From the NCBI GenBank assembly GCA_965222615.1, contig CBDCUI010000009.1:224001-288000 (forward strand): 64,000 nucleotides of DNA. Direction: 5' to 3'. The notes beneath the pieces are model-generated. The model worked only from the letters and a program-made list of their open reading frames with translations. It ran no database searches and was not told the origin of the DNA. This document shows positions 29,654 to 48,981 of this stretch, piece after piece; positions within the stretch are counted from its first letter, which is position 1, and each line of letters opens with the position of its first letter. Source of the stretch: Gammaproteobacteria bacterium (GTDB lineage Bacteria; Pseudomonadota; Gammaproteobacteria; UBA4575). A program made the position numbers and the translations under genes.

Positions 29654-29677
29654 CCCAACTTCTGCCTAATTGTTGGG
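29654..29677 (+). other. 24-bp inverted-arm recombination-like site s1 (CCCAACTTCT gcct AATTGTTGGG)
   Basis: Same 10-4-10 layout as s2-s5; homology to the right element ends here. Confidence 0.6.
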
Positions 29678-29787
29678 TAATGATCTTAATACCCATATAA
29701 TGTCCGCTAACGACCCAATGTATGGACACCTCCAAGCTAAGCAATTAGTTTGTGTGGTGTTAGAAACACAAAAGAAGGAGTCCATAC

Positions 29788-31085: not shown

Positions 31086-31106
31086 CAAAGCGGACAAATA
31101 TAAATT

Positions 31107-31304: not shown

Positions 31305-31311
31305 ATGTCCG

Positions 31312-32735: not shown

Positions 32736-32816
32736 CTATTGGACGAAAGCAGACATAATTGAGGACAAATCAGGTTGGAATCAACAAACTACAAACATAA
32801 AATGACTGCTTACGAC

Positions 32817-34047
32817 TGCCGATTCAATTGATCACCGCAACACTTTATCTTAAGTAACAAAAAAGATGGAGTGTGAAGGATGGGCTATCGAACACGCATT
32901 TATTATAGCGAAGCACAAAAACAGGTGATGTGGGATCGCTGGCAGCAAGGTGATTCTCTCCACACTATTGCGCGCCTTTTTAATCGTGGGCACTCATCGA
33001 TACGACGGATACTTGCAGAAACAGGTGGCATTCGCCCTCCTCAACGAACACGATCAGGCTTCGCACTGACGTTATCGGAACGCGAAGAAATTTCTCGTGG
33101 ACTCGCACGGAATGTATCTTTGCGATCGATTGCTAAACAACTAAAGCGTTCACCTTCCACCATCAGTCGCGAGATTCAGCGCAATGGCGGCATTGCGACA
33201 TATCGCGCGAATGAAGCGGAACAAGCTGCGTGGGATCGGGCGCGCCGTCCTAAAACGTGTAAACTCGCTAGGAACAAAGACTTGTGTCATGCCGTAGCAA
33301 CCAAGTTGCAATTACATTGGTCGCCGGAGCAGATTGCGGGTTGGTTAAAACGCACCTATCCTAATGATGAGAGTAAGACCGTGTCGCATGAAACGATTTA
33401 TCGCAGTTTGTTCATTCAAGCCCGCGGAACCCTGAAAAAAGAGTTACTTGCGTATCTGCGCACGCAACGGACTTTACGTCAGTCAAAGAAAGCCAGTTTG
33501 AAAAACCAAGGCTTAGGTCAAATTAACCATGCGGTCTCCATTCGACAACGTCCGGCATCGGTGGAAGATCGTGCCGTACCGGGACATTGGGAAGGTGATC
33601 TCATTGCAGGCTCAAACAACAGTTATATTGCCACCTTGGTCGAACGACATACACGCTATGTCATGCTAGCCAAAGTAAAGAATAAAGACACGAAGAGTGT
33701 CATCAATGCACTTATCAAGCAAGCGAAGAAATTGCCGAATGAGCTCTACAAATCGTTAACCTGGGATCGCGGTAAAGAGATGGCCGATCATCAACGCTTT
33801 ACCTTAGCGACCGAAATCAAAGTCTACTTTTGCGATCCACAAAGTCCGTGGCAACGGGGTTCAAATGAAAATACAAATCTACTACTTAGACAGTACTTTC
33901 CAAAAGGAATGGACCTGTCTAACATTCATCAGAATCGATTGAATGCAGTAGCAAGACAATTAAACGAACGACCTAGGAAAACACTAGAATTTGAAACACC
34001 AGCAGAAAAATTTAACCAATGTGTTGCAGCGATCGGTTGAGATCGCA
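32817..34047 (+). mobile_element. IS30-family element with 2-bp TSD (AC), inserted in a palindrome
   Basis: IRs TGCCGATTCAATTGATCACCGCAACAC / GTGTTGCAGCGATCGGTTGAGATCGCA; reconstructed target TGACTGCTTACGACCCAAAGCGGACA. Confidence 0.9.
32880..34040 (+). CDS. IS30-family DDE transposase
   Basis: WSPEQI, SHETIY, GHWEGDL, TWDRGKEM, PWQRGSNENTN. Confidence 0.95.
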   Translation: MGYRTRIYYSEAQKQVMWDRWQQGDSLHTIARLFNRGHSSIRRILAETGGIRPPQRTRSGFALTLSEREEISRGLARNVSLRSIAKQLKRSPSTISREIQRNGGIATYRANEAEQAAWDRARRPKTCKLARNKDLCHAVATKLQLHWSPEQIAGWLKRTYPNDESKTVSHETIYRSLFIQARGTLKKELLAYLRTQRTLRQSKKASLKNQGLGQINHAVSIRQRPASVEDRAVPGHWEGDLIAGSNNSYIATLVERHTRYVMLAKVKNKDTKSVINALIKQAKKLPNELYKSLTWDRGKEMADHQRFTLATEIKVYFCDPQSPWQRGSNENTNLLLRQYFPKGMDLSNIHQNRLNAVARQLNERPRKTLEFETPAEKFNQCVAAIG

Positions 34048-34081
34048 ACCCAAAGCGGACATTTCTAACAATCATAAATAC

Positions 34082-34683
34082 ATGACTAAAACGAAAATAA
34101 TTGTATTAAGAATTTTAGCTATACTAGCTATAGTTGAAATACTAATTTTAGTATTCGCTGGATTTCAGCAAATATCGGGCACTAAAGAATTATTTGAAAG
34201 CTTTGAAGGTCCACTTCCACTAATAACAACTGTTTATCTAGTACATAAAAGTGTAGAAGAGGTTAGGCGAGATTCGCTTCGATATAAATATTGGATTCAA
34301 TTTCTGTTTGCTAAACTGGCGGTGTCCATATACTAAAACGAAAATAATTGTATTAAGAATTTTGCTATACTAGCTATAGTTGAAATACTAATTTTAATTC
34401 GCTGGATTTCAGCAAATATCGGGCACTAAAGAATTATTTGAAAGCTTTTCCACTTCCACTAATAACAACTGTTTATCTAGTCACGTATAAATATTGGATT
34501 CTACTGGCAATATTCCCTCTATTTATTTTTGTTAAATCGTTTAGGGAAAAATTTAAATCACGTAATTCATCAAGTCCATTTGTTTCGTTGCTTATTGCAT
34601 TTATTATTATTGGGATACTAATATTTGTAGGAATTATATTTGCAATGTATGCGCCTATTTGGGAATTGTCTAATAAGGCTTAA
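34082..34683 (+). pseudogene. Membrane-protein cassette with GspF/PilC-like motifs, interrupted by a scrambled duplication
   Basis: Joining 34082-34240 to 34481-34683 gives a contiguous protein of about 120 aa (...LFESFEGPLPLIT...IFAMYAPIWEL). The intervening DNA is IS110 end fragments plus an indel-ridden copy of the gene's 5' part. Confidence 0.5.
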
Positions 34684-34704
34684 GTGATGATATTTTTATG
34701 ACCG

Positions 34705-36112
34705 TATATGGCCTCCCTCCGTTTGCAAGCAAAATATTCAATGACAAAGTAGAGTCGACTGCACACGTATATTCGGCCTCTATTGATAGCAAGCGTTGAT
34801 GCTGGGCCAGGATGGTGTATTCGCACCTAAGCACCCAATCGCTATTACGTACTCGAAGTACCTGGACATTCACGGGTTACGCTTAGGTCGGTTCGACCGG
34901 TTTGCCATCTAATAAATTACTTTGCAATCGTGGTAGATAATCCTCTTAAGTGTAAGTACATGTAATTTCGTTAATTGTTTTATTTCACATAAGCGCAAAG
35001 TTCGGATCATATTCACTTTCATCTCGCAACATTGCAAATGCCATACGCACGGTTTTATTCGCCAGTGCGACAGCGGCCACATTCGTATGTTTGGTTTTAG
35101 AAAGATGCGTGACCCACTGACTCAATCGATCCTCTTTATGTTTCGCTTGCGAGACGACAGCCCTTGCTCCGTGAATGAGTAAGGTGCGCAGATAGGCATC
35201 GCCGCGTTTACTGATTTCCAGTAAACGCTCTTTATTGCCTGAACTGTGTTGTCTGGGGGTTAAGCCTAAGGCTGCCGCCATCTGGCGACTGCTCTTGTAT
35301 TGTTTGGCATCGCCTACCGTGGCAATCAATGCTGTGGCCACCATCGGCCCGACCCCTCGTAGCTGTTGTAGACGCTTGGTGACTTCGTTTTGTTTGGCCT
35401 GTTGTTCAATCGTTTGATCAAGTTCTTTTACACGCGCATCTAATGTTAGTACGTCATGTTGAAGTCCCTGTAGTAAAGAACGAAAGTGTGGCGTTAAGCC
35501 ATTCTCTCCGTCTTCTAACCAAGTCGGTATTGCAGCGCGTAATCGATGTAACTGTTGGGGTGCGACTAAGCCATATTCACTCACTAAGCCTCGAATCTGA
35601 TTGGCTTTAGCGGTGCGTTGTTGCACCAAAGTATTACGCACACGATGCAGGGCCTGAATGTCTTGCTGTTCAATACTTTTGATCGTGACAAAGCGCATGT
35701 TGGGGCGACTCATGGCTTCGCAAATGGCTTCGGCATCGTTGGCATCATTCTTGTTGCTCTTTACATAAGGCTTTACAAACTGGGGTGCAATCAATTTCAC
35801 CACATAGCCTCGTTGTTGTAATACACGAGCCCAGTGGTGTGCACCCGAACAGGCCTCCATGCCAATCTCACCACCCGGTTCAACATGCTCCACTAATACC
35901 TTAAGCCACTTGCTTCGAGATAAGCGTCGTTTGAATACGCACTTTCCCGTGCGATCCACCCCGTGTAGTTGAAAAACATGCTTTGCCAAATCCACACCCA
36001 TGCGTGTAATCTTGTTCATGTATGGTCTCCTTTATTCAAAGTAACTGGTTCTATCGCTTCCAGTATGGGCACATTACGATGCCGTTTAAAGTTGAGGGAG
36101 GCCATACCATTG
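34705..36112 (-). mobile_element. IS110/IS1111-type element B, copy 2
   Basis: Transposase identical to copy 1; reconstructed target TATGACCG|CTATTGGCCGAAAGCGGACAT. Confidence 0.9.
34985..36019 (-). CDS. IS110-family transposase
   Basis: Protein identical to that of 31608-32642. Confidence 0.95.
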   Translation of the reverse strand: MNKITRMGVDLAKHVFQLHGVDRTGKCVFKRRLSRSKWLKVLVEHVEPGGEIGMEACSGAHHWARVLQQRGYVVKLIAPQFVKPYVKSNKNDANDAEAICEAMSRPNMRFVTIKSIEQQDIQALHRVRNTLVQQRTAKANQIRGLVSEYGLVAPQQLHRLRAAIPTWLEDGENGLTPHFRSLLQGLQHDVLTLDARVKELDQTIEQQAKQNEVTKRLQQLRGVGPMVATALIATVGDAKQYKSSRQMAAALGLTPRQHSSGNKERLLEISKRGDAYLRTLLIHGARAVVSQAKHKEDRLSQWVTHLSKTKHTNVAAVALANKTVRMAFAMLRDESEYDPNFALM

Positions 36113-36163
36113 CTATTGGCCGAAAGCGGACATCAAGGTTAGCCAATGAAGAGAATAGGGCGC

Positions 36164-36187
36164 GTTAACTTTTTAATAATAGTTGGG
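36164..36187 (+). other. 24-bp site s2 (GTTAACTTTT taat AATAGTTGGG), the empty allele
   Basis: Left arm and spacer match s4; right arm and downstream sequence match s3. Confidence 0.65.
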
Positions 36188-36235
36188 GAGTCATAGATTG
36201 GCCGAGAGGGGATTTATATAGTTCTTTATTTTATA

Positions 36236-36652
36236 ATGTATGAATGGGAATTAATGCTGCTAAAAAAACGTGCCAAAGAACGTGGTCGAATTGCTAGGCA
36301 AGAGCTCTTACTGGCCGACGGTGGCTGCATTAGTGCCGCGGATGCTGCAAAGCAACTGGGAATCACGGAGGTAGAGCTTGAGAGAATCCGTAGTTCTAAT
36401 CAGTTATTGGCTGTTGATGTTGATAGCAAGTTTCAATATCCGATTTGGCAATTCGAGGGAGCAAATTTAGTTCCCGGATTACAAGAAATATTAGAAATAC
36501 TTGGCGATGATGATCCGTGGTCGAATTTCATCTTTTTGTTGGGTCACGACTATGCAGTAGATGGATGTCGTCCAATCGACAAACTTCGTGTAGGTGATAT
36601 TGATTCAGTCAAACGCGCTGCACATACGTACGGTCATCATGGTGCAGTTTAA
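36236..36652 (+). CDS. HTH + Xre/MbcA/ParS-like antitoxin-type protein (left copy)
   Basis: AADAAKQLGIT HTH, YPIWQF, DGCRPIDKL. Comparison with the right copy suggests a true start at 36244 and an extra A in an A7 run. Confidence 0.6.
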   Translation: MYEWELMLLKKRAKERGRIARQELLLADGGCISAADAAKQLGITEVELERIRSSNQLLAVDVDSKFQYPIWQFEGANLVPGLQEILEILGDDDPWSNFIFLLGHDYAVDGCRPIDKLRVGDIDSVKRAAHTYGHHGAV

Positions 36653-36675
36653 ATAAAGCAAATAATAGGTAATTT

Positions 36676-36858
36676 ATAAACAATTCAATTCAACGCATAC
36701 CTGGAATTGCTGGAAGCAAACCATTGCTCAAGTGTGTATGCGTCCCCACAAAAATAATTGCAGAGCGATTTAAAGCCGGCGAATCAATTAGTGCGCTTGC
36801 AGTGGACTATGGTTGTAGGAACACAGAAATAGAAGAAGCGATTAGATTCGAACTTTAG
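36676..36858 (+). CDS. DUF433-like small protein (no canonical start codon visible)
   Basis: IQRIPGIAGSKP...IIAERFKAGESISALAVDYG...IEEAIRFEL; the diverged mirror copy keeps the frame with many synonymous changes. Confidence 0.55.
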   Translation: MNNSIQRIPGIAGSKPLLKCVCVPTKIIAERFKAGESISALAVDYGCRNTEIEEAIRFEL

Positions 36859-36879
36859 TCACAAATCTCCCGAAATAAA

Positions 36880-36992
36880 CCTGAATTCCAGGTACTTACT
36901 TTTACTCCCGAACTTACACTCAAGTACCGAATTTTACTCCTGGGGGACTGATGTTTACTCCCGAAAAGTGCTGGGTATTACTAGGAATTACA
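36880..36992 (-). repeat. Tn7-like transposon end (terminal TGT plus tandem TnsB-type binding sites)
   Basis: Reverse complement reads TGTAATTCCTAGTAATACC followed by several GGAGTAAA repeats; homologous to the end at 37110. Confidence 0.8.
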
Positions 36993-37037
36993 ATAGTCTC
37001 GAACCGATAAGGTGATTAACCATCTGGTTAATCGTTT

Positions 37038-37065
37038 TCTTAACATAATATATATTATGCGAAGT
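37038..37065 (-). other. dif: XerC/XerD dif site
   Basis: Minus strand ACTTCGCATAA-TATATA-TTATGTTAAGA has the 11-6-11 layout and matches the dif consensus (E. coli GGTGCGCATAA TGTATA TTATGTTAAAT). Confidence 0.88.
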
Positions 37066-37244
37066 TAAATATGTGGGTGCCTAATAGAATTTGACGTCTC
37101 TTAAACATGTGTGATTCTTAGTAAAACCAAGCACTTTTCAGGACTAAAAGTCAGTACTTCAGGAGTAAAACTAAGTACTTGAGTAATTAATAAGACTAAA
37201 ACTAGATACCTGAATTCATGATCTATTTCTAAAGATTTGTGACT

Positions 37245-37427
37245 TTAAAGTTCGAATCTGATGGCTTCTTCGATATAAGAGTCTTTACAGCCGTAATCCA
37301 TAGCCAGCTCAGTAATCGATTCGCCGGCTTTAAATCGCTCTGCAATTATTTTTGTGGGGACGCATACACACTTGAGCAATGGTTTGCTTCCAGCAATTCC
37401 AGGTATGCGTTGAATTGAATTGTTTAT
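37245..37427 (-). CDS. DUF433-like small protein (mirror copy)
   Basis: ...AGESITELAMDYGCKDSYIEEAIRFEL*; homologous to 36676-36858. Confidence 0.55.
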   Translation of the reverse strand: MNNSIQRIPGIAGSKPLLKCVCVPTKIIAERFKAGESITELAMDYGCKDSYIEEAIRFEL

Positions 37428-37450
37428 AAATTACCTATTATTTGCTTTAT

Positions 37451-37858
37451 TTAAACTGCACCATGATGACCGTACGTATGTGCAGCGCGTTTGACTGAAT
37501 CAATATCACCTACACGAAGTTTGTCGATTGGACGACATCCATCTACTGCATAGTCGTGACCCAACAAAAAGATGAAATTCGACCACGGATCATCATCGCC
37601 AAGTATTTCTAATATTTCTTGTAATCCGGGAACTAAATTTGCTCCCTCGAATTGCCAAATCGGATATTGAAACTTGCTATCAACATCAACAGCCAATAAC
37701 TGATTAGAACTACGGATTCTCTCAAGCTCTACCTCCGTGATTCCCAGTTGCTTTGCAGCATCTGCGGCATTAACGCAGCCACCGTCGACTAGCAAAAGTT
37801 CTTGTCTGGCTATTCGACCACGTTCTTTAACACGCTTTTCTGCAGCACTAATTCCCAT
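37451..37858 (-). CDS. HTH + Xre/MbcA/ParS-like antitoxin-type protein (right copy)
   Basis: Near-identical to 36236-36652, with an intact N-terminus. Confidence 0.65.
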   Translation of the reverse strand: MGISAAEKRVKERGRIARQELLLVDGGCVNAADAAKQLGITEVELERIRSSNQLLAVDVDSKFQYPIWQFEGANLVPGLQEILEILGDDDPWSNFIFLLGHDYAVDGCRPIDKLRVGDIDSVKRAAHTYGHHGAV

Positions 37859-37910
37859 CTCAGTATTATAAAGAATTAATCAAGTCCCCTCTTCGTTGTA
37901 TGTATCACTC

Positions 37911-37934
37911 CCCAACTATTGCACAAAAGATGGG
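37911..37934 (-). other. 24-bp site s3 (CCCATCTTTT gtgc AATAGTTGGG), junction of the recombinase module
   Basis: Right arm and continuation AATAGTTGGGGAGT are identical to s2. Confidence 0.65.
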
Positions 37935-38055
37935 GAGCGAATCATACATATTAACTATCTGTTTTATAATAATATTTTCAATTATTTTGTTGAAAAAATA
38001 ACATAACTAGAGTAAATTTCTCACCAACTTTTTGAGTAATAGATAAATAGTTGGT

Positions 38056-38706
38056 ATGTTAGAAACATCAACATCCGAAGTGAAAAACTTCAATCACCCA
38101 GCTCCTGGGTCGACCATAAAAGTCGAACCAATTCGAACTGTTCAAGCGATTCACAAAATTAAAACCATGCTTGAACCTAATCCGCGTAACTATTGTTTAT
38201 TCGTTCTTGGGATTAATACCGCATTTCGAGCTTCTGAATTACTTTCAATAAAGATTGGACAGGTTAAATATTTAAATCCAGGAGATCGGTTAGAAGTTAA
38301 ACAACCAAAAACGAAAAAGTATCGATCCGTGACAATCAATCAGTCAGCTCATGATGCGATACGTCGATTAATTATAGAAAAAGATATAGAAGCTCTCAAA
38401 AAAAGAAACTTGAATATCTCTGATGACGATGCATTTCTATTTACTGGCCAACGCGGATCGTCAGCTCTTAAGGTTTCAACTTTAAACAATATGGTTAAGG
38501 ATTGGTGTAGAAAAGTTAATCTGAAAGGTAATTTTGGTAGTCACACTCTACGAAAAACCTGGGGATTTATGCAGCGCAAGAAGCAAGACACCCCTATTCC
38601 TTTATTGATGCAAGCATTAGGTCATGCAACTCAAAGACAGACTATGGAATATTTATGCATTCAAGAAAAAGAAATTGAGAATGTTTATACAGCAATGGAA
38701 CTATAG
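38056..38706 (+). CDS. Small (catalytic-domain) tyrosine recombinase
   Basis: Catalytic residues present: R (NTAFRASELL), K (QPKTKK), HxxR (SHTLRKT), H (LGH), Y (TMEYL). Confidence 0.9.
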   Translation: MLETSTSEVKNFNHPAPGSTIKVEPIRTVQAIHKIKTMLEPNPRNYCLFVLGINTAFRASELLSIKIGQVKYLNPGDRLEVKQPKTKKYRSVTINQSAHDAIRRLIIEKDIEALKKRNLNISDDDAFLFTGQRGSSALKVSTLNNMVKDWCRKVNLKGNFGSHTLRKTWGFMQRKKQDTPIPLLMQALGHATQRQTMEYLCIQEKEIENVYTAMEL

Positions 38707-38827
38707 TAGTGGCTAGGATTTATACAACCTTTCAAAGCTATATATTATTCTATGATGTATCCATATACTTTATATAGAATAATGTTACGTTTACTCCTAA
38801 TGGTGGTGCGCATAATGAGGGTTAAAA

Positions 38828-39832
38828 ATGGCACACGGTAGATTGCTCAGACAACTCATTCGTGCTGGTGTTAATGCGCCCGGAGAAGAATTTCGTGAGG
38901 TAGCCGAAAAGGTTATTCGCGAAGAACGTGAAAAAAAACATCATTTACTAGCTAATGATCTAGAACGGATTCTGTACGGCGAAAGTAATGATGAAGCACG
39001 TACCCTCTTACCACTATCGCTACCTGAAGTGCCAAAGGATCGAGAGCGACATATACCACTTTTAGAAATTCGCGAACCAGTTCGTTCTTTCGCAGACATT
39101 GTTCTTACCAAAGACAACCGTGAGATACTCGAACATGTTTTGCAAGAACAGGGACGGCGTGATGTGCTTGGCTCTTATGGTTTGAAACCTGCCAATCGTT
39201 TACTATTCTGCGGGCCACCTGGATGTGGAAAGACCTTAGCTGCAGAAGTATTAGCGACCGAGCTTGGTTTACCACTACTCTTAGTGCGCTTTGATGCGGT
39301 TGTGTCATCCTATCTTGGTGAAACTGCAGCAAATTTACGAAAAGTGTTTCAGTACCTTGAAACTGGACGTTATGTTGTTTTGTTTGATGAGTTTGATGCG
39401 ATAGCAAAAGATCGTGCGGACGCATCTGAGCATGGTGAATTACGAAGGGTTGTAAATGCATATCTGCAAATGATGGATAGCTATCGTGGCAATTGTTTGT
39501 TACTTGCCGCATCAAACCATGAAGGTTTACTTGATAAAGCCCTTTGGCGACGATTTGATGAAGTACTTTTCTATCGTCGCCCAACAACAGAAGAAATTAT
39601 TGATTTGGTTGCTGTAAAACTTCGAGGTATTCGCTATAACTTTGAAACAGAAAACGAACCGACTATCGCTAACTTCAATGGGATGGCGCACGCTGACATT
39701 GAGCGTGTATTGATCCGCGCAATTAAACATATGATCTTATCGGGTCGTGAATTTTTAAGCACTGACCACATCGCACTTGCCCTAGAACGAGAACGGGAAA
39801 GACGATCTGTCGCTGAACATAAGTCGATTTAA
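38828..39832 (+). CDS. AAA+ ATPase (IetA-like partner of an S8 protease)
   Basis: GPPGCGKT, SSYLGETAANL, LFDEFDAI, LDKALWRRFD. Confidence 0.85.
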   Translation: MAHGRLLRQLIRAGVNAPGEEFREVAEKVIREEREKKHHLLANDLERILYGESNDEARTLLPLSLPEVPKDRERHIPLLEIREPVRSFADIVLTKDNREILEHVLQEQGRRDVLGSYGLKPANRLLFCGPPGCGKTLAAEVLATELGLPLLLVRFDAVVSSYLGETAANLRKVFQYLETGRYVVLFDEFDAIAKDRADASEHGELRRVVNAYLQMMDSYRGNCLLLAASNHEGLLDKALWRRFDEVLFYRRPTTEEIIDLVAVKLRGIRYNFETENEPTIANFNGMAHADIERVLIRAIKHMILSGREFLSTDHIALALERERERRSVAEHKSI

Positions 39833-39837
39833 CAGTA

Positions 39838-42147
39838 ATGGTAGATCGACTACCGCATCTAAGAATGGCTCGAGCAGAGCCGATTAACGAACGACGCCGA
39901 CGACCAGGATTTGGACCTGGGCGGCCTAAAGACCCTGGTCGTCACGCCCAAGAGTTAAAAGAAAACCTTGATGAGCATAAAGACTCACCAGAAAACGAAT
40001 TAGCTGGTTTCGATCCGCGCCACTTACTCAAACTCGAAATCGAAGGCATTGCTGGTGATGAGCTTTCAAACATTCCAGAATTCAGTGTCGTTACTGAAGA
40101 AGGGAGTAACGTAACTGTGTTGTTTGCTACGGAAAGCGCATTGAAAGAATTTCGTAGTCGATTAGAACAACTTGAAGCAGGTAATCGTGCGACACGTGAG
40201 CAAATATTATTTGCAGTTAAGGGATTTGATTATATTACTGCGGATGATCGCCGAGGCCCCCGGTTAAGCACGGATGGAACGCCAAACAAAGAGCTTTTCA
40301 TACTGGATGTTGAACTTTGGGCGCTTGATCTTCGTAATGAACGAGATGCGATGATCGAATATTTCGTTGAGTTTTGTCATCAATCTAATATTGACATTCG
40401 TGATCAAGTTAATCATCCATCGCTTGTTTTGTATCGTGTAGAAACATCTTCTGATGGTCTAAACAAATTACTTAACATGCGTGATGTAAGGCGTGTTGAC
40501 TTACCCCCTCAATATGAATTTGAGATGGAGTTACTTGATGCGACGGTGAACTCATTACCAGAAATTAAACCACCACCCGACAACGCACCCACCATAGCAA
40601 TATTAGATTCAGGAATAGCCAGTGCTCACCCACTTTTAGAGCATGCTGTTGGAGACGCTCAATCATTTGTTGACGAAGATCCCATCGACCTTGTTGGCCA
40701 CGGTACTACAGTAGCAGGTCATGCTTTACTTGGTGATGTAGCAACTGTCGCTCAAAGCGCAACGCATACCGCTGAACTTCGAATACTCAGCGGTAAAATT
40801 GGTCAAGGCCGAGATGATGTAACTTTGATTGAAAATCGCATTATTGAGGCGGTGCAATATTTTAAGGAACACTATAATTGTAGAGTGTTCAACCTATCTA
40901 TCGGTGTTTATGCTCGCCCTTACCTAGGCGGACACGTTGATAGACTTGCAGCTACTATTGATTGGTTATCTCGTGAGTATCAAGTGCTGTTCATTGTCTC
41001 GACGGGTAATATCCATTCAAGTGTGCAAGGGCCAGCCAATTGGCGAGAAGGTTACCCACGCTATTTGTTGGAAGATGAATTTCGCTTGTTAGATCCTGCT
41101 CCAGCATTGAACGCAATAACAGTAGGCGCATTAGCTAATTATGAGGTCGCCCGAATGGCTGCACGTAATCCTGACGATCCTTCATATCAACCTATTGCGC
41201 ATCGTGATCAACCATCACCCTTTACGTTGTGTGGTCCAGGTCCAAATGATGCAATAAAGCCAGATTTTGCCGACTACGGTGGTAATCGTTATATTGATTC
41301 ACGCCAAGCACCGCGACCATTAGCAGGAAATGAATTAGGTGAGCTCGGATTAAGTAATAAATTTGCCACTGGAAACTTGTATAGAGTTTCAGTGGGCACA
41401 AGTTTTGCTGCACCTCGTGTTGCACACTGTGCTGCACATATATTACGTCAGTATCCCGATGCGTCACCGTCGCTTCTTAGGGCGTTGTTGGCTGCTCATT
41501 CAACTGTGCCTACTTCCACAGCGGATTTGGATCTAGACAAATCAGAGGTACTACGTCTTGTTGGATACGGTAAGCCCAACAAAGAATATTCACTGTATTC
41601 CGAAAACAATCGCGTTACAATTTTGGCCGAAGAGACACTTGCTCCTAATGAACATCACTTCTACCAACTTCCTATGCCGGATGATCTTTTTAAGTCTCCT
41701 GCTCGTCGACCTCGACGAATTACTGTTGCTCTCGCACATACGCCACGAGTTCGACGAACGCGTTTAAAATACCGGGAAAGTGAGATGTCTTTTCGAATAA
41801 TTAAAGCCGAGAGCCTTGAATCCGTGACTCAAGCTTATCGGAGGCTGCGGAAAGATGAGAAAGAAGATCTAATTCCGGAAAGTGATTTCACACCAGGCCC
41901 TACGCTGCGTGAAGGTGGTTCATTGCAGTGTGCTACACGCATACTTGGTCAAGTGGATGAGCGATACCGAAGAAAACCATACTTCTTAGTTGTAACCAAT
42001 AATGTACCAGATTGGGTTAGCTCAATTGATTCGGAGCCTTATTCGCTTGTAATCGTTATTGAAGATCAATCAGACGTTGAAGTAAATCTATATACGCAAA
42101 TCCAATTAGAGCTACAAGAGCGTGTGCGCACACAGGCTCGGAATTAA
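39838..42147 (+). CDS. S8 subtilase-family serine protease (IetS/Y4bN-like)
   Basis: Catalytic triad ILDSG, GHGTTVA, GTSFAAP; GYGKP; no signal peptide; coupled to the AAA gene. Confidence 0.88.
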   Translation: MVDRLPHLRMARAEPINERRRRPGFGPGRPKDPGRHAQELKENLDEHKDSPENELAGFDPRHLLKLEIEGIAGDELSNIPEFSVVTEEGSNVTVLFATESALKEFRSRLEQLEAGNRATREQILFAVKGFDYITADDRRGPRLSTDGTPNKELFILDVELWALDLRNERDAMIEYFVEFCHQSNIDIRDQVNHPSLVLYRVETSSDGLNKLLNMRDVRRVDLPPQYEFEMELLDATVNSLPEIKPPPDNAPTIAILDSGIASAHPLLEHAVGDAQSFVDEDPIDLVGHGTTVAGHALLGDVATVAQSATHTAELRILSGKIGQGRDDVTLIENRIIEAVQYFKEHYNCRVFNLSIGVYARPYLGGHVDRLAATIDWLSREYQVLFIVSTGNIHSSVQGPANWREGYPRYLLEDEFRLLDPAPALNAITVGALANYEVARMAARNPDDPSYQPIAHRDQPSPFTLCGPGPNDAIKPDFADYGGNRYIDSRQAPRPLAGNELGELGLSNKFATGNLYRVSVGTSFAAPRVAHCAAHILRQYPDASPSLLRALLAAHSTVPTSTADLDLDKSEVLRLVGYGKPNKEYSLYSENNRVTILAEETLAPNEHHFYQLPMPDDLFKSPARRPRRITVALAHTPRVRRTRLKYRESEMSFRIIKAESLESVTQAYRRLRKDEKEDLIPESDFTPGPTLREGGSLQCATRILGQVDERYRRKPYFLVVTNNVPDWVSSIDSEPYSLVIVIEDQSDVEVNLYTQIQLELQERVRTQARN

Positions 42148-42233
42148 AGTTTCGAATTTCTGCGTGCAAACTCTATGATGAAATCGACAAGATATGCAGT
42201 ATCGTTTTTAACCATACCACACGTATTTTCACC

Positions 42234-42257
42234 CCCAACTTTTATTAAAAAGTTAAC
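42234..42257 (-). other. 24-bp site s4 (GTTAACTTTT taat AAAAGTTGGG)
   Basis: Lies within the inverted repeat 42234-42302 of 36118-36187; bounds the recombinase-AAA-S8 module. Confidence 0.65.
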
Positions 42258-42302
42258 GCGCCCTATTCTCTTCATTGGCTAACCTTGATGTCCGCTTTTG
42301 GC

Positions 42303-42552
42303 TGTGGTCTCAATAGGTCGATGCAACACTTTGAAATAGAGTGAAAAAAGGCTGCAAAAGCTAAGAGAAATGCAATTACATCAACATCTTAAGAGTAGAT
42401 CAATAAAAGATGGCTCGAAGCAAGTAATAATGCAGTATTTAATGTAACCGGTTCATCCAAAAACAACTCAACACTAAATGGTCATCCGTTTGAGTCAACC
42501 TCTTTATTACTAAAAGTTTAGCAAGGTGTTGCATTGACCGATTGAATCGGCA
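42303..42552. mobile_element. 250-bp non-autonomous IS30-ended element in a palindrome
   Basis: Ends TGTGGTCTCAATAGGTCGATGCAACAC and GTGTTGCATTGACCGATTGAATCGGCA resemble the IS30 IRs at 32817/34047; no transposase. Confidence 0.75.
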
Positions 42553-42589
42553 GTCGTTAGCGGACATTATATGGGTATTAAGATCATTA

Positions 42590-42613
42590 CCCAACAATTA
42601 GGCAAAAGTTAAT
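42590..42613 (-). other. 24-bp site s5 (ATTAACTTTT gcct AATTGTTGGG)
   Basis: Overlaps the 58-bp inverted repeat 42553-42610 of 29657-29714; lies just downstream of tniQ. Confidence 0.6.
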
Positions 42614-42651
42614 AGATAATTATTCCTGAATTTCTTTGTACGACCCTCATA

Positions 42652-44238
42652 TTAGAATGAACCATGCACGTGCATAGATCTTTCGACTATTTCATCCCTG
42701 CCTTTTTGTTTTACATCGCTCAAATTAACTAGTATTGGTAGGAATGTTAAGTGTTCGTATACGATCTTATTATTAGTGATGTCAATAAAAGATAGCGTTT
42801 TTGCAAAATTGAGTTTATTTAGATCGCGCTCCAAGTTATCTGAATGCACCCATATTTGTTCACTCAAAGAAACTAACCATACAAATTGTAAATAAAGTTC
42901 TGCAAGGTATTGCCACAACCATTCTTTGGTAAACCGATAGACAAAGGGTCGATTATTAAAATGCATGCATTTACTATCTTCAGACCATAATAATTTTCCT
43001 GGACCGTTTTCTGACCAATCCATCCATACCGATGAATCCAAATAATGTGATGCGTAGTCCTCTACATTAATTATTTGCCCTTGCGGAAATACACATTTTT
43101 GCCAAAGCGAATATGCAGTACACCATAATGACGTAGCTTTAGATAATTTGACACTACAAAACTTATTACAGTGAAACATAGTCCCTGACTTACGACTTGA
43201 ATAATCAATATGCACTTTCAATTCCTGATCAAACGACTTTATGAAGGATGTTATAAATTGAGTGAGGTGGTTATAAGTCCGTAATTTGGGGAATCTTTCT
43301 ATCAAATTTTTACCGTTTAGGTATTCTTTAGTAAGAGTTCTATCACGTAGAATCTCCTTGTAATTTTTTACGTCATACTTATCGAAACAACCCACATCAC
43401 ATGAAAGTGGATAAAATTCCCTAGTAGGGATATTTATTTTTGATTTCAAGTACGTGGTTTTTGAAGTTCTAACATTTCCAACGTTAACTAAACAAGTCTT
43501 CACCCAATCCGGACCAGCTGAAAAATGATGTAAATAGGCTAAATTTGCATAGTCGACACAACCCTTCAGCCAAATCCGAACAGAATTGGAAGGGTTATTG
43601 AGTTCCTCGGCTTTGTTAATCCAATATCTATATTCTTCTATTATTTTCTTGCGTTCTAAAATATCTGTGCCGACTCTATATCTATCTATATCCCAAAAAT
43701 TTGTTCCACACTTAATGTTAGGGCAACTATATATTTGTAAGAAAGCATTCGTAACTTTATATTTATGTAAATAGCTCCCACATTTTATACAGATAGTAGT
43801 TAATGGAGCGTGATGAATTGGGCAGTGACTCCATGCGAGAATTTGATGGAAAACAAGATGTGTGCCCCGCTGGACACATTGAGGACAAATGCGTAAATGT
43901 TTTGATAAATTTAATGGATTGTTAATAGAGATTGTTGATTTATAGGCACAGATGTTTTTGATATTCGAGGAATAGTATTCTCCACACGATGCCTCTAACC
44001 AATCACTCTTCCAACCAGTCAGCTGCAGAATTCGTTTTACGTTAAAATTACGAACGTCGTCTGGATAGGTGCTTATATCGCTAATGTAATCCGACGCATA
44101 ACTTTTTCGAGTTCCAAAGTTTCTTTTAAAGTCTGACCAATCAAAATGATTTAATATTGCTAGCTTCGCTGTAATAGACCACAGAGTCTCACCTATTGGA
44201 TTCCATTCTTGAGCACCAATCAGGCTACGGCTATTCAT
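42652..44238 (-). CDS. tniQ: TniQ/TnsD-family target selector
   Basis: PIGETLWS N-terminus; zinc-finger CPQC...HQ..WSHCPIH...CIKCG...CPNIKCG; long C-terminal extension; last gene of the tns operon. Confidence 0.8.
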   Translation of the reverse strand: MNSRSLIGAQEWNPIGETLWSITAKLAILNHFDWSDFKRNFGTRKSYASDYISDISTYPDDVRNFNVKRILQLTGWKSDWLEASCGEYYSSNIKNICAYKSTISINNPLNLSKHLRICPQCVQRGTHLVFHQILAWSHCPIHHAPLTTICIKCGSYLHKYKVTNAFLQIYSCPNIKCGTNFWDIDRYRVGTDILERKKIIEEYRYWINKAEELNNPSNSVRIWLKGCVDYANLAYLHHFSAGPDWVKTCLVNVGNVRTSKTTYLKSKINIPTREFYPLSCDVGCFDKYDVKNYKEILRDRTLTKEYLNGKNLIERFPKLRTYNHLTQFITSFIKSFDQELKVHIDYSSRKSGTMFHCNKFCSVKLSKATSLWCTAYSLWQKCVFPQGQIINVEDYASHYLDSSVWMDWSENGPGKLLWSEDSKCMHFNNRPFVYRFTKEWLWQYLAELYLQFVWLVSLSEQIWVHSDNLERDLNKLNFAKTLSFIDITNNKIVYEHLTFLPILVNLSDVKQKGRDEIVERSMHVHGSF

Positions 44239-44250
44239 TATTTGATAATG

Positions 44251-45240
44251 TTAATGTGCTGTACGTACAACTAGATCTTTAATCTGTTCAATTGCTACAT
44301 GGCTGATAGCATCTTCGATGAATCTCTTTTCCAATTGAAGTGACATATCATCTTGTTCTGGCAATGCTTTTAGTATCCAACGTAATAACGCTGAGATCGG
44401 TTGTAGAGGAATTTCATCAAATTTTGCAATATGTTCAGCTCTGCACATCTCCATAAGAGAATCCCAAATTAATTCTGCCGAATCTAATAAACGCCAGCCT
44501 GCGTCATAAGCTTGTGGAGCAAAATACCTTGTATAGGAGCATCCCGACCCAGGAGGATATTCTGAATGTGAATCGAGCATTTTTATTATGCGTCTAAAAT
44601 CTCTTTTGTCGGCAATGCCTTCAAATCGATGTGTCGCAGTCATGAATCGCCCAAGCAATTGTTGCTTTCCTGAACTTCTGAAATTGTTTTTTATATCTAT
44701 TAATTCTGGTTGACCGACTAGCACTGTCACTAAACGCACGTCTTTCATTTTCAATGAATTATGAAGATCCATAAGATATTCATATTGTGTTAAATCTAAC
44801 CATTCTGCTTCATCAATAAATAAAAGATAACGATGTTCACGCGTTTGAAAGGCACGCTCAACCATAAAATCAATACAACGTCTGCGCTTTATTCTTGCGG
44901 CTTTAGAATCAATTAATGAATAATTTAGTGCTTGCAGCATCTCATCAAAGAAGCGTAATTCAGTAGTACTACTTTGTGATGGTTGCCACATGCTCAACAT
45001 CGTAGTTGGAATTGGGCTTCCTAAAACTTCTTCACAATTATCAACAATGTAACGAATTGCTTGAGTCTTCCCTACCCTTTGATTTCCCCACACTAAACCG
45101 CCTGGTAAAAGTTTATCCAACCAAACTAGAATTGCATTTACGAATTCTTCTAATGGACGCGTCGGAATAATTGCTGCATCACGCAATATTGGGTGATCGT
45201 CAATAAACTCTACTCTCTCGTTATTATGCTTTCTTTCCAT
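44251..45240 (-). CDS. tnsC: TnsC/TniB-like AAA ATPase
   Basis: Walker A GNQRVGKT, Walker B LFIDEAE, LVGQPEL, GRF. Confidence 0.82.
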   Translation of the reverse strand: MERKHNNERVEFIDDHPILRDAAIIPTRPLEEFVNAILVWLDKLLPGGLVWGNQRVGKTQAIRYIVDNCEEVLGSPIPTTMLSMWQPSQSSTTELRFFDEMLQALNYSLIDSKAARIKRRRCIDFMVERAFQTREHRYLLFIDEAEWLDLTQYEYLMDLHNSLKMKDVRLVTVLVGQPELIDIKNNFRSSGKQQLLGRFMTATHRFEGIADKRDFRRIIKMLDSHSEYPPGSGCSYTRYFAPQAYDAGWRLLDSAELIWDSLMEMCRAEHIAKFDEIPLQPISALLRWILKALPEQDDMSLQLEKRFIEDAISHVAIEQIKDLVVRTAH

Positions 45241-45252
45241 TGTGTTTATATG

Positions 45253-47148
45253 CTATCGAGTTGTATGTACTTTATTTAATGAAACCCAGTTCTCGTGTTT
45301 CGTAGGTATATTCTGTTTTTCTTGTTTTAGTTTGTTGAATTCTGTTGAGGAGTGCTGCAAATGCAGAAGTCGGTTTCTATCTTTTCTATATTTATTGGCG
45401 CGTTTATTGAGAAAGTTCATGTAGTCTGATAACGGTGTGAGCGTGTCAGAATATAAACGCTTTTGCTTTATAAGTTTTAAAATTGCACATCTTATTTTTA
45501 AGCTATGTGGATAGATCATCCAGCGTTCTTCTGCTTCAAGACGACCTATACATTTGCCATTTTCTAAAAACAGTAACCCTGTGCGTATGTCTTTAATGTT
45601 TACGCGAAATGTTGCACGTTGATTTGTATATTGAGTATTAATTCTTAAGAAGTCACTGGAATATCTCACTCCTTTGAATTTTATATAGGGTCGGTGCTGA
45701 TGCTCACGACTTGACCGTATCGTGACAAAATAATTTCTTTCAAATAAGGGAATATTATCCGGTTGTTGATTTGTTAGATATCGTGGTATATCCCCTGCTC
45801 GATCAATTCGATAACGGATGTATTCAAGTGGCGTGCGACCATTCAGACTGGTGTGAGGGCTCGCATTATAGTTTGCGATAGCGACATCTGTAACGAGTTC
45901 AAGGTTTTCATACTCGATTAAGAGTTTTTTTGCTTGCTGTGTTGCGTTTCTTCTTCTCGGATCTTGTGGATTTGAACCAGTTGTATTTGGCCATCTATGT
46001 AAAGATGCTTCTTCAAACGTCCTCATGAATCTTTCAATTATTGAATTAGATCGAGGTCGTCGAGCTTTATTGCTGATGATCTCTATTGCACCCGTTGAGA
46101 TAATTCTGTTTTGTAGCCAACTAGAAATATTTGCATATGCATTGTCTAGTTGGACAACATCAAATGATCTCCAAGCGCATTTATCAATAACACCAGATGG
46201 CAATCCCGCATTTCGCTTGTAATGAATAACGCCGTTGGTATTTTCTTTTGGTAACCACGGTGTGAATGAACTTGCTATGCATTCTAGCAAGTCTTCCATA
46301 GTGTAATTTTCCGATAAGCTTAAGCTATAACCAAGAATCGCCCTGCTCGACACATCAATTAGTACGAGCAACCAAATTCTAGAAAGCGGTAGTTCTTGTT
46401 CTTCACCAAATTGGTCTTTGATGCGGATGATTAGTTCAGCATCAAGGCGATGTGCATCAAACTGCACCTTATTATATGGTTTTAGTATTGGGACAGCGTT
46501 ATTTAAGCAGATATGATTTGTAGTGATCGATTGGATGTTATCGCCAAACTCAGCAATCGCTCCTTCAATAAAATTCTCTTTTTGAACTTTTCTGCAATAG
46601 TTACGAATTACCTCTCTACCACCGTCACGATTACTGAAGGGATAATCCAATTCGGTATCAATGCCTTTTGCTGTACAATTATCTTTAAAAGCTTCCCAAA
46701 TGATTTTAGTATTTCTACCGCGCACATAGCACTCATCTATTTTTTTCTTTCCTAATGCCCATCCTTTAAGGCTATCTTCAAGATTTGGATATTGACGTAG
46801 AAATTGACTAAATAATCCAGCATGCCCAGTTAACTTGTTGGTTGTACGCTCATACTTTTTAAATCGAAAATTTGGGATACAAGCTGTATACCCCCACGGA
46901 TCTCCATCTGGCGATACGTCAAAGGCACGTTTAAGAATTCGTATTAACTCTGATTTAGATAATCCGCATTTATAAAGTATTTTTTCTATTGACAAATCGG
47001 ATGATAAATATAGGTCAACAGCACGTTTTCTACGATTAAATTTCGCTTTTTTAGCAGCAGAAAATGAACTTACATCAACCGGAAGCCAGTTGTTTGGCTC
47101 TAAGTCTTTTGATAGATGATTATTTTCAAGACATAGTTTCCTGATCAT
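45253..47148 (-). CDS. tnsB: TnsB-like DDE transposase
   Basis: VQFDAH, LIDVSSRAILG, LDNA, IERFMRT, YNASPHTSLNGRTP. Confidence 0.88.
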   Translation of the reverse strand: MIRKLCLENNHLSKDLEPNNWLPVDVSSFSAAKKAKFNRRKRAVDLYLSSDLSIEKILYKCGLSKSELIRILKRAFDVSPDGDPWGYTACIPNFRFKKYERTTNKLTGHAGLFSQFLRQYPNLEDSLKGWALGKKKIDECYVRGRNTKIIWEAFKDNCTAKGIDTELDYPFSNRDGGREVIRNYCRKVQKENFIEGAIAEFGDNIQSITTNHICLNNAVPILKPYNKVQFDAHRLDAELIIRIKDQFGEEQELPLSRIWLLVLIDVSSRAILGYSLSLSENYTMEDLLECIASSFTPWLPKENTNGVIHYKRNAGLPSGVIDKCAWRSFDVVQLDNAYANISSWLQNRIISTGAIEIISNKARRPRSNSIIERFMRTFEEASLHRWPNTTGSNPQDPRRRNATQQAKKLLIEYENLELVTDVAIANYNASPHTSLNGRTPLEYIRYRIDRAGDIPRYLTNQQPDNIPLFERNYFVTIRSSREHQHRPYIKFKGVRYSSDFLRINTQYTNQRATFRVNIKDIRTGLLFLENGKCIGRLEAEERWMIYPHSLKIRCAILKLIKQKRLYSDTLTPLSDYMNFLNKRANKYRKDRNRLLHLQHSSTEFNKLKQEKQNIPTKHENWVSLNKVHTTR

Positions 47149-47887
47149 GAGAACTGGATTTTATTATTGTTTTTATTGTTAATGGGTATGTGTCTAAATC
47201 AGATGAAAGTACCCCTTTGTGTAAATGTTTTGCTAAACAAGCAATAATATGCTGAGATTCAGACGCGCAGAGATTGATGATTTTCTCAAGGGTTATTTCT
47301 TTGTAGTTCTTACAAAGTTCCAAAACCTCTCTTTCAAGCAAAGGATCTGGGCTCTTATAGGCGTTTCTTGCATGTGAGAGCAGCTCACGCCAATTAAAAA
47401 TTAGAATTTTGTCTTTCTCTAAATTTTTATTAGTTATAAATTCACATCTGTAGCCATTTTCACTTCCCCACCTCTCAATTAAGTTCCAATCTTTGGGTCT
47501 AGTTGTTCCAGAATTGTCCTTCCTAAGAGAGGCTTCATTGAGAACTTCATAGAATACTTCTTGTTTTGACTTAAAGGTGAAACTTAAATCAAATGTGTAG
47601 TGAGGTTTGTTTCTTAGAGGCGCTTCTATCCGCAGTGGTCGCTCGCATAATTTTGTTATTGAAGGTTCCGCTTCTGCTTTTATGATTGCATCAGCAATTA
47701 GATCTCCGGCGACACAGACTTCTCTCATACCAGCCTTGATACTAAAAATGCGATGATATCTGCAGTTAATTTGTTTTTTTAGAGGCAATAAATGCGGGCC
47801 TCTAAACATTTTAGCTTCTATAAAACGTGCTGAATTGAAGTTCTCAGTGGATAAGTTGTTCTTATTATTTGCAACTACATCAGTCAT
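47126..47887 (-). CDS. tnsA: TnsA-like endonuclease
   Basis: FSIK...EAEPSITKLCERP...HYTFDL...FYEV PD-(D/E)xK-like pattern with a C-terminal wHTH-like region; overlaps the tnsB start. Confidence 0.7.
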   Translation of the reverse strand: MTDVVANNKNNLSTENFNSARFIEAKMFRGPHLLPLKKQINCRYHRIFSIKAGMREVCVAGDLIADAIIKAEAEPSITKLCERPLRIEAPLRNKPHYTFDLSFTFKSKQEVFYEVLNEASLRKDNSGTTRPKDWNLIERWGSENGYRCEFITNKNLEKDKILIFNWRELLSHARNAYKSPDPLLEREVLELCKNYKEITLEKIINLCASESQHIIACLAKHLHKGVLSSDLDTYPLTIKTIIKSSSHDQETMS

Positions 47888-48169
47888 AAATTTGTAAACT
47901 AATAAAGATGACTGTTCTAAATTAATAAATAATTACTATCTCAATCAACATAAAATTGTCTTGTAATATCAAGATTTTGATCTGTTATGTTTCTTAACTA
48001 ATTATGTTAGCCGTGTATAGCATTGTGAACACACACTATATGTAGTGGGTAGCATTGTTTTACTATCGCTTTTTTCATGAATTTTAGGAAATTTTGCATA
48101 TTTTAAGAATATATGTAAAAAAATGGTTGTATAAATAATCTAATATTTCGATCGTTTTAGATCAAAATT

Positions 48170-48565
48170 TTGTTTAATATTTTGTATATGGGAAGAGACT
48201 TAAAAGTACTCGGCGAAAACATAACGTTACTGCGTAAACGTTTATGTTTGAAGCAAGACCAGTTGGCTGAAATTGTTGGAACTTCCCAGTCACAAATTAA
48301 TGCGCTCGAAAGCAAGAAAACTTGTAATCCTGGTTATTTCATTGTTGAAGCATTAGCAGATTTTTTTGGTGTTAATAACTGGGATCTTGTTCATAAGCGT
48401 CTGGTGAACTTGAGTCCGAAAGAGCAACTTATTAATAGAGTAAGAACAAACACATCTGACAGTGATTTTTTACAAATTAAGCATCTAGTAGATGGTCAGC
48501 ATCTTGAATACGCGAAAAGCGGTAAATTTCGCTACGAGTATCGCCAGATAAAGAAAAGTAACTAG
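48170..48565 (+). CDS. XRE-family HTH regulator inside the transposon
   Basis: LGENITLLRKRLCLKQDQLAEIVGTSQSQINALE...NP; divergent from tnsA. Confidence 0.8.
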   Translation: MFNILYMGRDLKVLGENITLLRKRLCLKQDQLAEIVGTSQSQINALESKKTCNPGYFIVEALADFFGVNNWDLVHKRLVNLSPKEQLINRVRTNTSDSDFLQIKHLVDGQHLEYAKSGKFRYEYRQIKKSN

Positions 48566-48981
48566 AAAATAGTGTCCTGTAATTCAAGCATCGACTTTTA
48601 CTACGAAGTTTCCCCAAAATCTGATTTTTAGTCCTGTTTCTTCACGTCTAAATTAGTCCTCGAATTGGACTGATTTCAATAATTACAATAATTTAGGACT
48701 GTTTCTTAGTGTTCGGTATTACTAGGAACTACAACATGCCCTATACCAGAAAGTTACTTTTAAGATTACTCTGGTTACCATGATACGTGACTACTTATTA
48801 GATAGGCTTTCTATTACCTAATGGCTACACAAAGTCGAATATTGTTTTAGAAAAATATCGTATCTTAATGAATTTATTAGAATTATATTTTTAAGAATAA
48901 CTGGCCTTATCCCACGATTAATATATTCTAATTCTATTAGTAAAATTATATATTAGAATCTTCTAATATTATTAATATTTT

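Follow-up and report, generated by a model that had tools for sequence, protein, structure and literature searches.

The window analysed here is a stretch of 64,000 nucleotides from a gammaproteobacterial genome (lineage UBA4575; contig CBDCUI010000009.1, positions 224,001 to 288,000), and the element in question is a module at window positions 37921-42243 that encodes a tyrosine recombinase together with the AAA ATPase IetA and the S8 subtilase IetS. This module is likely a minimal self-integrating defence cassette with its own recombinase, inserted at an attB-like site in the cargo region of a Tn7-like transposon. As a preliminary description of the sequence had proposed, a filled and an empty allele of the site lie in one window: the junctions are exact, and deletion of the module in silico restores colinearity with the uninterrupted copy. 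The module and the sites in question are the following.

37921..42243, + strand: inserted module of 4,323 bp, absent from the paralogous copy; boundary ambiguous by 2 bp
36163..36188, no strand assigned: unoccupied docking site (attB-like) in the left remnant copy, inverted; CGTTAACTTTT TAAT AATAGTTGGGG
37910..37935, no strand assigned: left junction (attL-like); CCCCAACTATT GCAC AAAAGATGGGG
42233..42258, no strand assigned: right junction (attR-like); CCCCAACTTTT ATTA AAAAGTTAACG

The empty site reads without interruption as GTTAACTTTTTAAT|AATAGTTGGGGAG at 36164-36190 on the + strand. Both of its halves recur on the - strand, at 42257-42244 and 37920-37908, where they are split by 37921-42243. 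The flanks of the two sites form an inverted duplication, with 97% identity between 36119-36188 and 42233-42302 and 94% between 36264-36857 and 37246-37839. Upon removal of the module in silico the right copy becomes colinear with the left one (791 of 881 columns identical), and around the rejoined junction 73 of the last 74 columns are identical to the left copy, with no bases duplicated and none lost. A pattern for this site type finds three matches in the 3,097,016-bp genome, all of them the sites listed here, and in a shuffle control for the two halves of 13-14 nt only 0 and 2 of 100 shuffles, respectively, gave at least two matches. The module itself is single-copy in the genome and has a GC content of 41.9%, compared with 36.5% for the tns genes of the surrounding transposon. 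The integration site claimed earlier thus stands, though its length is 26-32 bp and not 24 bp; likewise, the left element is an uninterrupted copy, but not a full element, as it retains one transposon end only.

On the + strand, that is, as the reverse complement of the left copy, the attB-like site reads CCCCAACTATT ATTA AAAAGTTAACG. Comparison with the junctions reveals the origin of each part: in the left junction the left arm derives from the target and the centre and right arm from the module, and in the right junction the left arm derives from the module and the centre and right arm from the target. When the module ends are rejoined, the resulting putative attP, CCCCAACTTTT GCAC AAAAGATGGGG, has arms that are complementary at 10 of 11 positions, in agreement with the near-perfect palindrome noted before. 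The switch from target to module falls within a TT at site positions 10-11 (AA on the opposite strand), and the module boundary is ambiguous by 2 bp because this TT is common to both junctions; the sharing of about 2 bp at the exchange point is thereby substantiated. The centres of attP and attB, GCAC and ATTA, differ at all four bases, and positions 10-17 match at four of eight. An identical overlap of 6-8 bp between attP and attB, which characterizes lambda-like systems, is not present, again as anticipated. A DDE-type transposon was ruled out as the vehicle by the lack of both a transposase and a target duplication.

That the arrangement is an assembly artefact or a chance resemblance is scarcely credible. 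The region is rich in repeats and insertion sequence (IS) elements, a circumstance that speaks for such an error, but a Logan contig from a public run, possibly of the source sample, covers 37733-42271 with no differences. As this contig spans both junctions unchanged, the filled form is not an artefact of one assembly alone. Moreover, the site type on which the junctions lie has no other occurrence in this genome and recurs, conserved, in unrelated ones. Three public runs of one study contain the stretch, all as contigs and in the filled form only. No joint in these contigs skips 37921-42243, and the two joints listed, with sides of 20-21 nt, fall away from the sites.

The module contains three genes, all on the + strand, the first of which is preceded by two putative control elements.

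37990..38018, + strand: promoter-like TTGAAA-17-TAAATT for the recombinase gene, from a consensus scan
38022..38055, no strand assigned: second inverted repeat of recombinase half-sites, conserved in all seven aligned elements
38056..38706, + strand: tyrosine recombinase of 216 amino acids (aa), catalytic domain only; PF00589, E 1.3e-18
38828..39832, + strand: IetA, AAA ATPase; PADLOC E 2.6e-93, PF00004
39838..42147, + strand: IetS, S8 subtilase partner of IetA; PADLOC E 1.1e-197, PF00082

The recombinase is intact, which bears out the claim that the module brings its own enzyme. Its PF00589 domain spans residues 42-203 and scores 67.8 bits against a cut-off of 27.1. Residues R58, H163, R166, H190 and Y199 are invariant in 30 family sequences, and R58, H163-x-x-R166, H190 and Y199 align with the corresponding motifs of XerH and XerA, so that both fold and catalytic residues place the protein in the tyrosine recombinase superfamily. 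An AlphaFold (AF2) model (pLDDT 77.7) matches the C-terminal catalytic domains of XerH, XerA, Cre and IntI, with a Foldseek E value of 3.4e-07 for XerH. The model has no core-binding domain and no helix before residue 29; the first 28 residues are helix-free, yet strongly conserved (NPNHP..G..IKVEPIR). The N-terminal arm-binding and core-binding domains of lambda-like integrases are therefore lacking in this protein of 216 aa. Scores against the models of XerC (48 against a cut-off of 335 bits), XerD (41.5 against 329.6), XerS (39 against 267) and XerA (61 against 220) lie far under the cut-offs and do not support Xer orthology. The same holds for IntI (TIGR02249, 21.9 against 265 bits) and for the Fim-type invertases (NF007371, 23.4 against 222 bits; NF007370, 19.9 against 221 bits).

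The left junction is located about 146 bp upstream of the recombinase start, a position that is conserved in homologues. The number of promoter-like matches in the region is not above that in shuffles (consensus scan), and the hexamer pair given above coincides in position with blocks conserved in seven related elements. In the second inverted repeat, AACT and AGTT are separated by 19 nt, as opposed to 10 in the recombination sites, and the repeat ends at the start codon. It is probably an autoregulatory operator.

The PADLOC matches cover residues 2-326 of 334 in IetA and 7-768 of 769 in IetS, and the two genes are separated by 5 bp. The names IetA and IetS are PADLOC assignments. As adjacent full-length genes they are predicted to form a complete IetAS defence system, of which we take the two proteins to be the two published components.

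A search for relatives of the recombinase returned 2,467 proteins at E <= 1e-10 among 2,595 candidates scored. When each species was represented by a single genome, a relative was encoded in 466 of 500 candidate stretches, and the best 80 of these yielded the set of 79 distinct loci (L numbers below), which belong to Gammaproteobacteria, Alphaproteobacteria, Cyanobacteria (often on plasmids) and Acidobacteria. Six more loci, mostly short, were found in a metagenome scan with the single recombinase protein, and 32 plasmid records of PLSDB, mostly cyanobacterial and firmicute, contain a homologue. Upstream sequence of at least 200 bp was available for 83 homologous genes, of which 62 have a palindrome of the form xxxxAACTnnn-NNNN-nnnAGTTxxxx between -260 and -40, that is, 40-260 bp upstream, compared with 22 of 1,292 control windows. 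The outer arm bases vary by clade, being CCCC in the gamma clade and CACT or CATT in cyanobacteria. In seven close elements (73-79% protein identity) the DNA homology starts 3 nt ahead of the left arm, and the sequences beyond that point bear no relation to one another. On the downstream side, these elements share the promoter-like hexamer pair and the second half-site inverted repeat, whose spacer is about 9 nt longer and which ends at the start codon. In the search of other genomes for modules at similar sites, suggested in the preliminary description, the same site type lies upstream of the recombinase across the family, the cargo varies, and the homology of related elements begins at the site.

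These data bear on the possibility that a recombinase acting in trans, such as host XerC/XerD, as for pdif modules and IMEX (integrative mobile elements exploiting Xer), moved the segment with the encoded recombinase as a passenger. Xer-dependent modules with inverted half-site boundaries do exist, and a Tn7-like element that combines its own XerC-like protein with host XerD at a dif-like site is described in the part of PMC11014353 used here. Against this stands the family-wide association of the site with this recombinase gene, the dependence of the outer arm bases of the site on the recombinase clade, as well as the low XerC and XerD scores given above. The arms of the module sites also do not appear to resemble dif. 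We regard an Xer-driven event as very unlikely.

Defence-type genes lie directly beside the recombinase in 12 of the 16 annotated gamma-clade loci. IetAS is the cargo in the window, Gabija GajA and/or GajB are found in L003, L004, L005 and L012, a ThsB-like TIR protein in L082, a NucC-like nuclease in L083, AriA- or OLD-like ATPases in L001 and L015, a PbeA-like helicase in L007, a GAP1-N1 protein with two DO-GTPases in L008, and three PADLOC candidate (PDC) families in L010; the calls for L015, L008 and L007 are Pfam domain or weak PADLOC matches only. Extra sites occur beside the cassette in L001 (4896 and 5593), L006 (8159-8210 and 9829) and L083 (4365 and 9829). The segments that they delimit have no recombinase gene and encode a 163-aa open reading frame (ORF), a GNAT acetyltransferase and three unassigned ORFs; they may be passenger cassettes of an array. 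In the Acidobacteria, at L017 12390-19240 and L023 11751-15742, a small recombinase gene follows a large serine recombinase gene. No upstream site is present at these two loci, and downstream sites recur every 1.7-2.6 kb between small gene groups (Abi_alpha plus HNH, amidase and AAA ATPase), which has the look of an integron-like array.

Both ends were found in five elements, namely those of the window, L001, L003, L004 and L015. In all five, position 9 goes with the outer flank and the centre with the right arm, with unrelated centres, and the exchange therefore maps within the TT in five of five elements. The centres at the far end are ATTA in the window, CCGT in L001, GCGG in L003, L004, L015 and L098 (genome G412), and GACA in L012. 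The left arm AACTTTT is found at all seven far-end sites and at none of 17 upstream sites, where AACTATT prevails (11 of 17). RYAY centres (ACAC, ACAT, GCAC, ATAC) show the converse distribution, with 15 of 17 upstream sites and none of the seven far-end sites. An independent check comes from G412, where another element is integrated at the attB that is used in L003: identity between the two genomes starts at AACTTTT GCGG AATAGTTAGGT and runs into the flank, with 88% over 117 nt. Empty alleles were sought for three elements. For L003, homologues of its flanking gene in nine relatives show no site; for L004, the left flank was found in none of 40 relatives; and the L001 recombinase region has no match in the complete genomes of E. 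coli. At L098 (12194-13843), a 549-aa ORF, judged by eye to be an IS66-type transposase, cuts the recombinase gene.

Other members of the family display a different arrangement. In eight loci the partner sites match over the central 10 nt as reverse complements and thus form inverted pairs. In L019, L048, L049, L055, L062, L076 and L078 these sites are about 120-143 bp apart upstream of the gene, and the short segment between them, which resembles an inversion switch, separates the recombinase gene from a divergent gene of an unassigned family. L036 has its inverted sites on either side of the recombinase gene, 1,065 bp apart. The neighbours of the inverted-pair loci include a reverse transcriptase, an AAA_21 ATPase, ORF6N and a Schlafen/AlbA_2 protein. 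At L035 (5191-8782), IetA and IetS homologues (40% and 24% identity) adjoin an alphaproteobacterial family recombinase with an inverted site pair. In L011, two identical direct sites enclose 9.4 kb of cytochrome and oxidoreductase genes. Judged by these arrangements, inversion switches also belong to the family, as resolution systems probably do. Insertion that does not depend on homology may be peculiar to the cassette clade, or it may be rare.

An alternative that draws on such loci is that the recombinase is mainly a housekeeping resolvase or invertase of a plasmid or of the transposon itself, without a dedicated mobile cassette, and that the 4.3 kb arrived once, through fusion between a site on a plasmid and a resident site, the remainder being lost afterwards. 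The family is common on plasmids, as the 32 PLSDB records attest, the eight loci with inverted partner sites are typical of inversion switches, and dimer-resolution systems classically have their site immediately ahead of the gene. The module of the window, however, ends exactly at two sites with nothing else plasmid-like inside, the same compact order of site, recombinase, defence genes and site recurs in chromosomes among its close relatives, and two genomes carry different elements at one and the same attB. We consider this alternative improbable.

The facts on junctions, palindrome, gene-site association and cargo are explained together only by conservative integration through the encoded recombinase, since the junctions are exact and lack a duplication, the ends are palindromic, the site is linked to the gene and the cargo changes. 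We infer from the sequence that the module is mobile, that this recombinase is the agent, that excision can still occur, and in which order the strands are exchanged. The circular cassette would carry the palindromic attP about 120 bp upstream of its own recombinase gene, followed by IetA and IetS. The recombinase would bind inverted half-sites of about 11-14 bp and recombine attP with the look-alike attB GACTCCCCAACTATT ATTA AAAAGTTAACG in the cargo region of the transposon, in a conservative reaction that leaves no duplication. Because the cassette lies inside a transposon, two nested levels of mobility would result.

Strand exchange would take place at the left edge of the 4-bp centre, inside the common TT. 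As the centres GCAC and ATTA are unrelated, a standard homology-checked second step could not run normally, and two routes are conceivable. In the first, similar to that of IntDOT, the initial exchange would require about 2 bp of identity and the later steps would tolerate heterology. In the second, one-sided route, the top strands alone would be exchanged and the Holliday junction would be resolved by replication. The IntDOT-like route predicts a mixture of integrant types unless repair is biased. We lean towards the one-sided route because it predicts that the centre always remains with the same arm, as observed in five of five elements and in line with the conserved upstream centres, in a sample that is small, partly non-independent and provided with far ends by analogy.

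Several observations weigh against an integrating cassette of this kind. No circle, emptied right copy or transcript was seen in the public runs, which are contigs only, and the empty site resides in a paralogue with about 90% overall identity rather than in the same transposon of a sister strain. Four of the 16 annotated loci (L002, L006, L081 and L011) have no recognisable defence cargo, and for the other elements the far-end sites are assignments made by analogy. Five nucleotides (AAAAG) are common to attP and attB at the right edge of the centre, and identity alone therefore does not explain the use of the left edge; a more likely reason for this choice is that attB has a strong, conserved left half (GACTCCCCAACTATT) and a weak right half. 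Finally, given the eight loci with matching 10-nt centres and the identical partner sites of L011, at least part of the family uses canonical centre homology, and the event in the window could be a rare insertion at a secondary site.

The direction of the event deserves separate consideration. Both copies may once have been filled, so that the left site would be an excision scar produced by the same mechanism in a different history. Conservative recombination restores attB exactly, so a scar and a naive site look alike, and the left copy, a decayed remnant, has undergone repeated rearrangement. The sequence does not separate the two histories, and the copies differ by about 10%, which marks them as old paralogues for which no common occupancy history is needed. 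Prior occupancy of the left site is a possibility that we judge rather unlikely.

The module is nested in a complete Tn7-like element, in accordance with the earlier claim of nesting inside a transposon. The features of this element and of the remnant copy are as follows.

37110..48733, - strand: complete Tn7-like transposon with ends and a 5-bp duplication; TnsB rve_3, AAA_22/TniB, TniQ
47126..47887, - strand: tnsA-like gene, from position and homologues; no Pfam match
45253..47148, - strand: tnsB; rve_3
44251..45240, - strand: tnsC/tniB; AAA_22/TniB
42652..44238, - strand: tniQ; TniQ
37451..37858, - strand: 135-aa gene beside the docking site; weak AbiEi_4 match only
36236..36652, + strand: 138-aa paralogue of the 135-aa gene, 93% identical
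36119..36992, + strand: remnant of a second, related Tn7-like element with a single end, ...GGAATTACA, at 36992; carries the empty site

The terminal inverted repeats of the complete transposon start with TGT, as is usual for Tn7-like ends, and begin TGTGATTC... and TGTAGTTC... (TGTGATTCTTAGTAA... / TGTAGTTCCTAGTAA...). Both ends contain repeated AGGACTAAAA-type motifs and are flanked by a 5-bp target duplication, ACATG, at 37105-37109 and 48734-48738. The transposition genes form a block at 42652-47887 on the - strand and correspond to the Tn7-like set, with matches to rve_3, AAA_22/TniB and TniQ that are all below or near the cut-offs. The tnsA-like gene was called from its position and from homologues of 22% identity beside tnsB in L004 and L012. 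The module is situated in the cargo region, about 810 bp from the left end and next to the 135-aa gene. The 138-aa neighbour protein is present in the genome of the window only and absent from 400 other genomes of the class. Homologues of Tn7 genes (tnsA-like, tnsB and tnsC; 22-34% identity) are located directly upstream of the Gabija cassettes in L004 (5634-9195) and L012 (3623-9768); transposon ends were looked for at these two loci and not identified.

Three transposon ends of this type are present in the genome, and the third, at 36992, faces the left end of the right element. Two left-type ends thus face each other about 117 bp apart (36993-37109), and for the element to which the left one belongs, the genome contains neither a second end nor tns genes. 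The homology of the remnant ends at 36119, and another 58 bp of it lie at 29657-29714, on the far side of an IS-rich block. The right copy is interrupted at 42303-42552 by a 250-bp repeat that has five further copies in the genome, four of them long (251-284 bp, 97-100% identity) and one a partial copy of 141 bp. At the matching point the left copy holds a 6.4-kb block of IS110-family and IS30-family elements (29715-36118), which implies that the same position was struck independently in both paralogues. Elsewhere in the window, a 2,840-aa ORF at 20620-29142 contains tandem repeats of 405-423 bp rich in D/S/N motifs and a long C-terminal part, and at 55700-56930 several ORFs on both strands overlap repeats composed of CATCAT/ATGATG units (families D5 and D7).

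In the open-access library that was searched, no description of this recombinase family or of such a cassette was found. Already known are islands that combine an integrase with defence genes, defence cargo in integrons, and tyrosine recombinases tied to Tn7-like elements; the present module would add to these a minimal defence cassette that brings its own recombinase, uses a simple palindromic site, integrates across heterologous centres and lies within a Tn7-like transposon. If this interpretation is correct, a very small vehicle moves single anti-phage systems (IetAS, Gabija, Thoeris-like and others) between replicons, and a source for the varied defence cargo of Tn7-like transposons is explained. 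Few recombinases with a defined simple site are as small as this one, which apparently integrates without centre homology. It offers a tractable model for tyrosine recombinases that bypass the homology check, as well as a useful bait for new defence genes in metagenomes.

More tentatively, the loci described above might belong to an undescribed and widespread class of "self-driving" defence cassettes, each composed of a recombinase, an attP and one to four defence genes, with one-sided exchange over about 2 bp, integron-like arrays, growth of Tn7 cargo, and switches in Alphaproteobacteria. In such a class, recombinases of about 200-217 aa without a core-binding domain would act on palindromic attP sites of 26-32 bp beside their genes, and docking sites would accumulate arrays (L001, L006, L083 and L017). 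Tn7-like transposons would keep such sites or adjoin the cassettes (the window, L004 and L012) and would gather their defence systems one cassette at a time. In Alphaproteobacteria, enzymes of this family would also operate short inversion switches beside defence genes.

Among known systems, IntDOT offers a precedent for heterologous exchange: as stated in the part of PMC2817482 used here, its first exchange requires 2 bp of identity, and none is needed in the later steps. Recombination over about 2 bp of shared sequence is therefore unusual, but not unprecedented. To the extent covered by that source, IntDOT of CTnDOT, and Tn916-type integrases, resemble the module in their heterologous overlaps, and an identity of about 2 bp fits the single TT found here. 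IntDOT, however, is large, has an arm-binding domain with arm sites and serves a big conjugative element, whereas the present recombinase has 216 aa, a simple palindrome and a 4.3-kb module.

In CTX phage integration by XerC (an IMEX) and in the integron reaction of attC with attI, one strand pair is exchanged at the edge of a non-homologous centre, and replication resolves the product. This product keeps the centre with the same arm, as in the five two-ended elements. These systems employ host Xer or a resident IntI on folded single-stranded sites, whereas here the recombinase travels in the cassette. A 26-bp palindrome would fold into a single arm only; a double-stranded attP is consequently more likely, and an attP that acts as a single-stranded hairpin, as in integrons or CTX phage, is unlikely. 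Cre/loxP of phage P1 likewise combines a single recombinase with two inverted arms and a short centre, without accessory arm sites. Cre, in contrast to the module recombinase, has a core-binding domain and requires identical spacers.

The FimB/FimE invertases, of about 200 aa, share with the module recombinase the lack of a separate N-terminal DNA-binding domain, and inverted sites around short segments beside the gene, similar to theirs, are found in the eight inverted-pair loci. In the window, by contrast, the sites bound an insertion and not an invertible segment, and their centres are unrelated in either orientation. Further tyrosine recombinase systems tied to Tn7-like elements, namely TnsF/Tsy and the pair of an XerC-like protein and a dif-like site, involve different proteins, as far as the portions of PMC10293859 and PMC11014353 considered here extend. 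In PMC13552941, small serine recombinases are put forward as markers for defence systems. A figure title of the same paper states that two tyrosine recombinases, which are unrelated to the present family, did not reliably identify antiphage defence across phyla when used as bait.

Islands that carry an integrase and defence genes, including tmRNA islands, are described in the part of PMC12595487 used here. As presented in that part, such phage defence islands resemble the module in combining a tyrosine recombinase with anti-phage cargo in the absence of transfer or replication genes, and differ from it in their larger size, full-length integrases, AlpA, tRNA or tmRNA targets and direct repeats. 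The module, in turn, has no direct repeats, and its site is palindromic and its target lies inside a transposon. Integron gene cassettes that carry defence systems (bioRxiv 10.1101/2024.07.02.601686 and 10.1101/2024.07.02.601719) are, like the module, small, promoter-poor units of one to three defence genes bounded by imperfect palindromes. The likeness may extend to the possible arrays of the recombinase family in L001, L006, L083 and L017. An integron cassette, however, has a long attC hairpin and no recombinase of its own, and depends on a fixed IntI platform, whereas the present cassette has only a 26-bp palindrome and carries a non-IntI recombinase within it.

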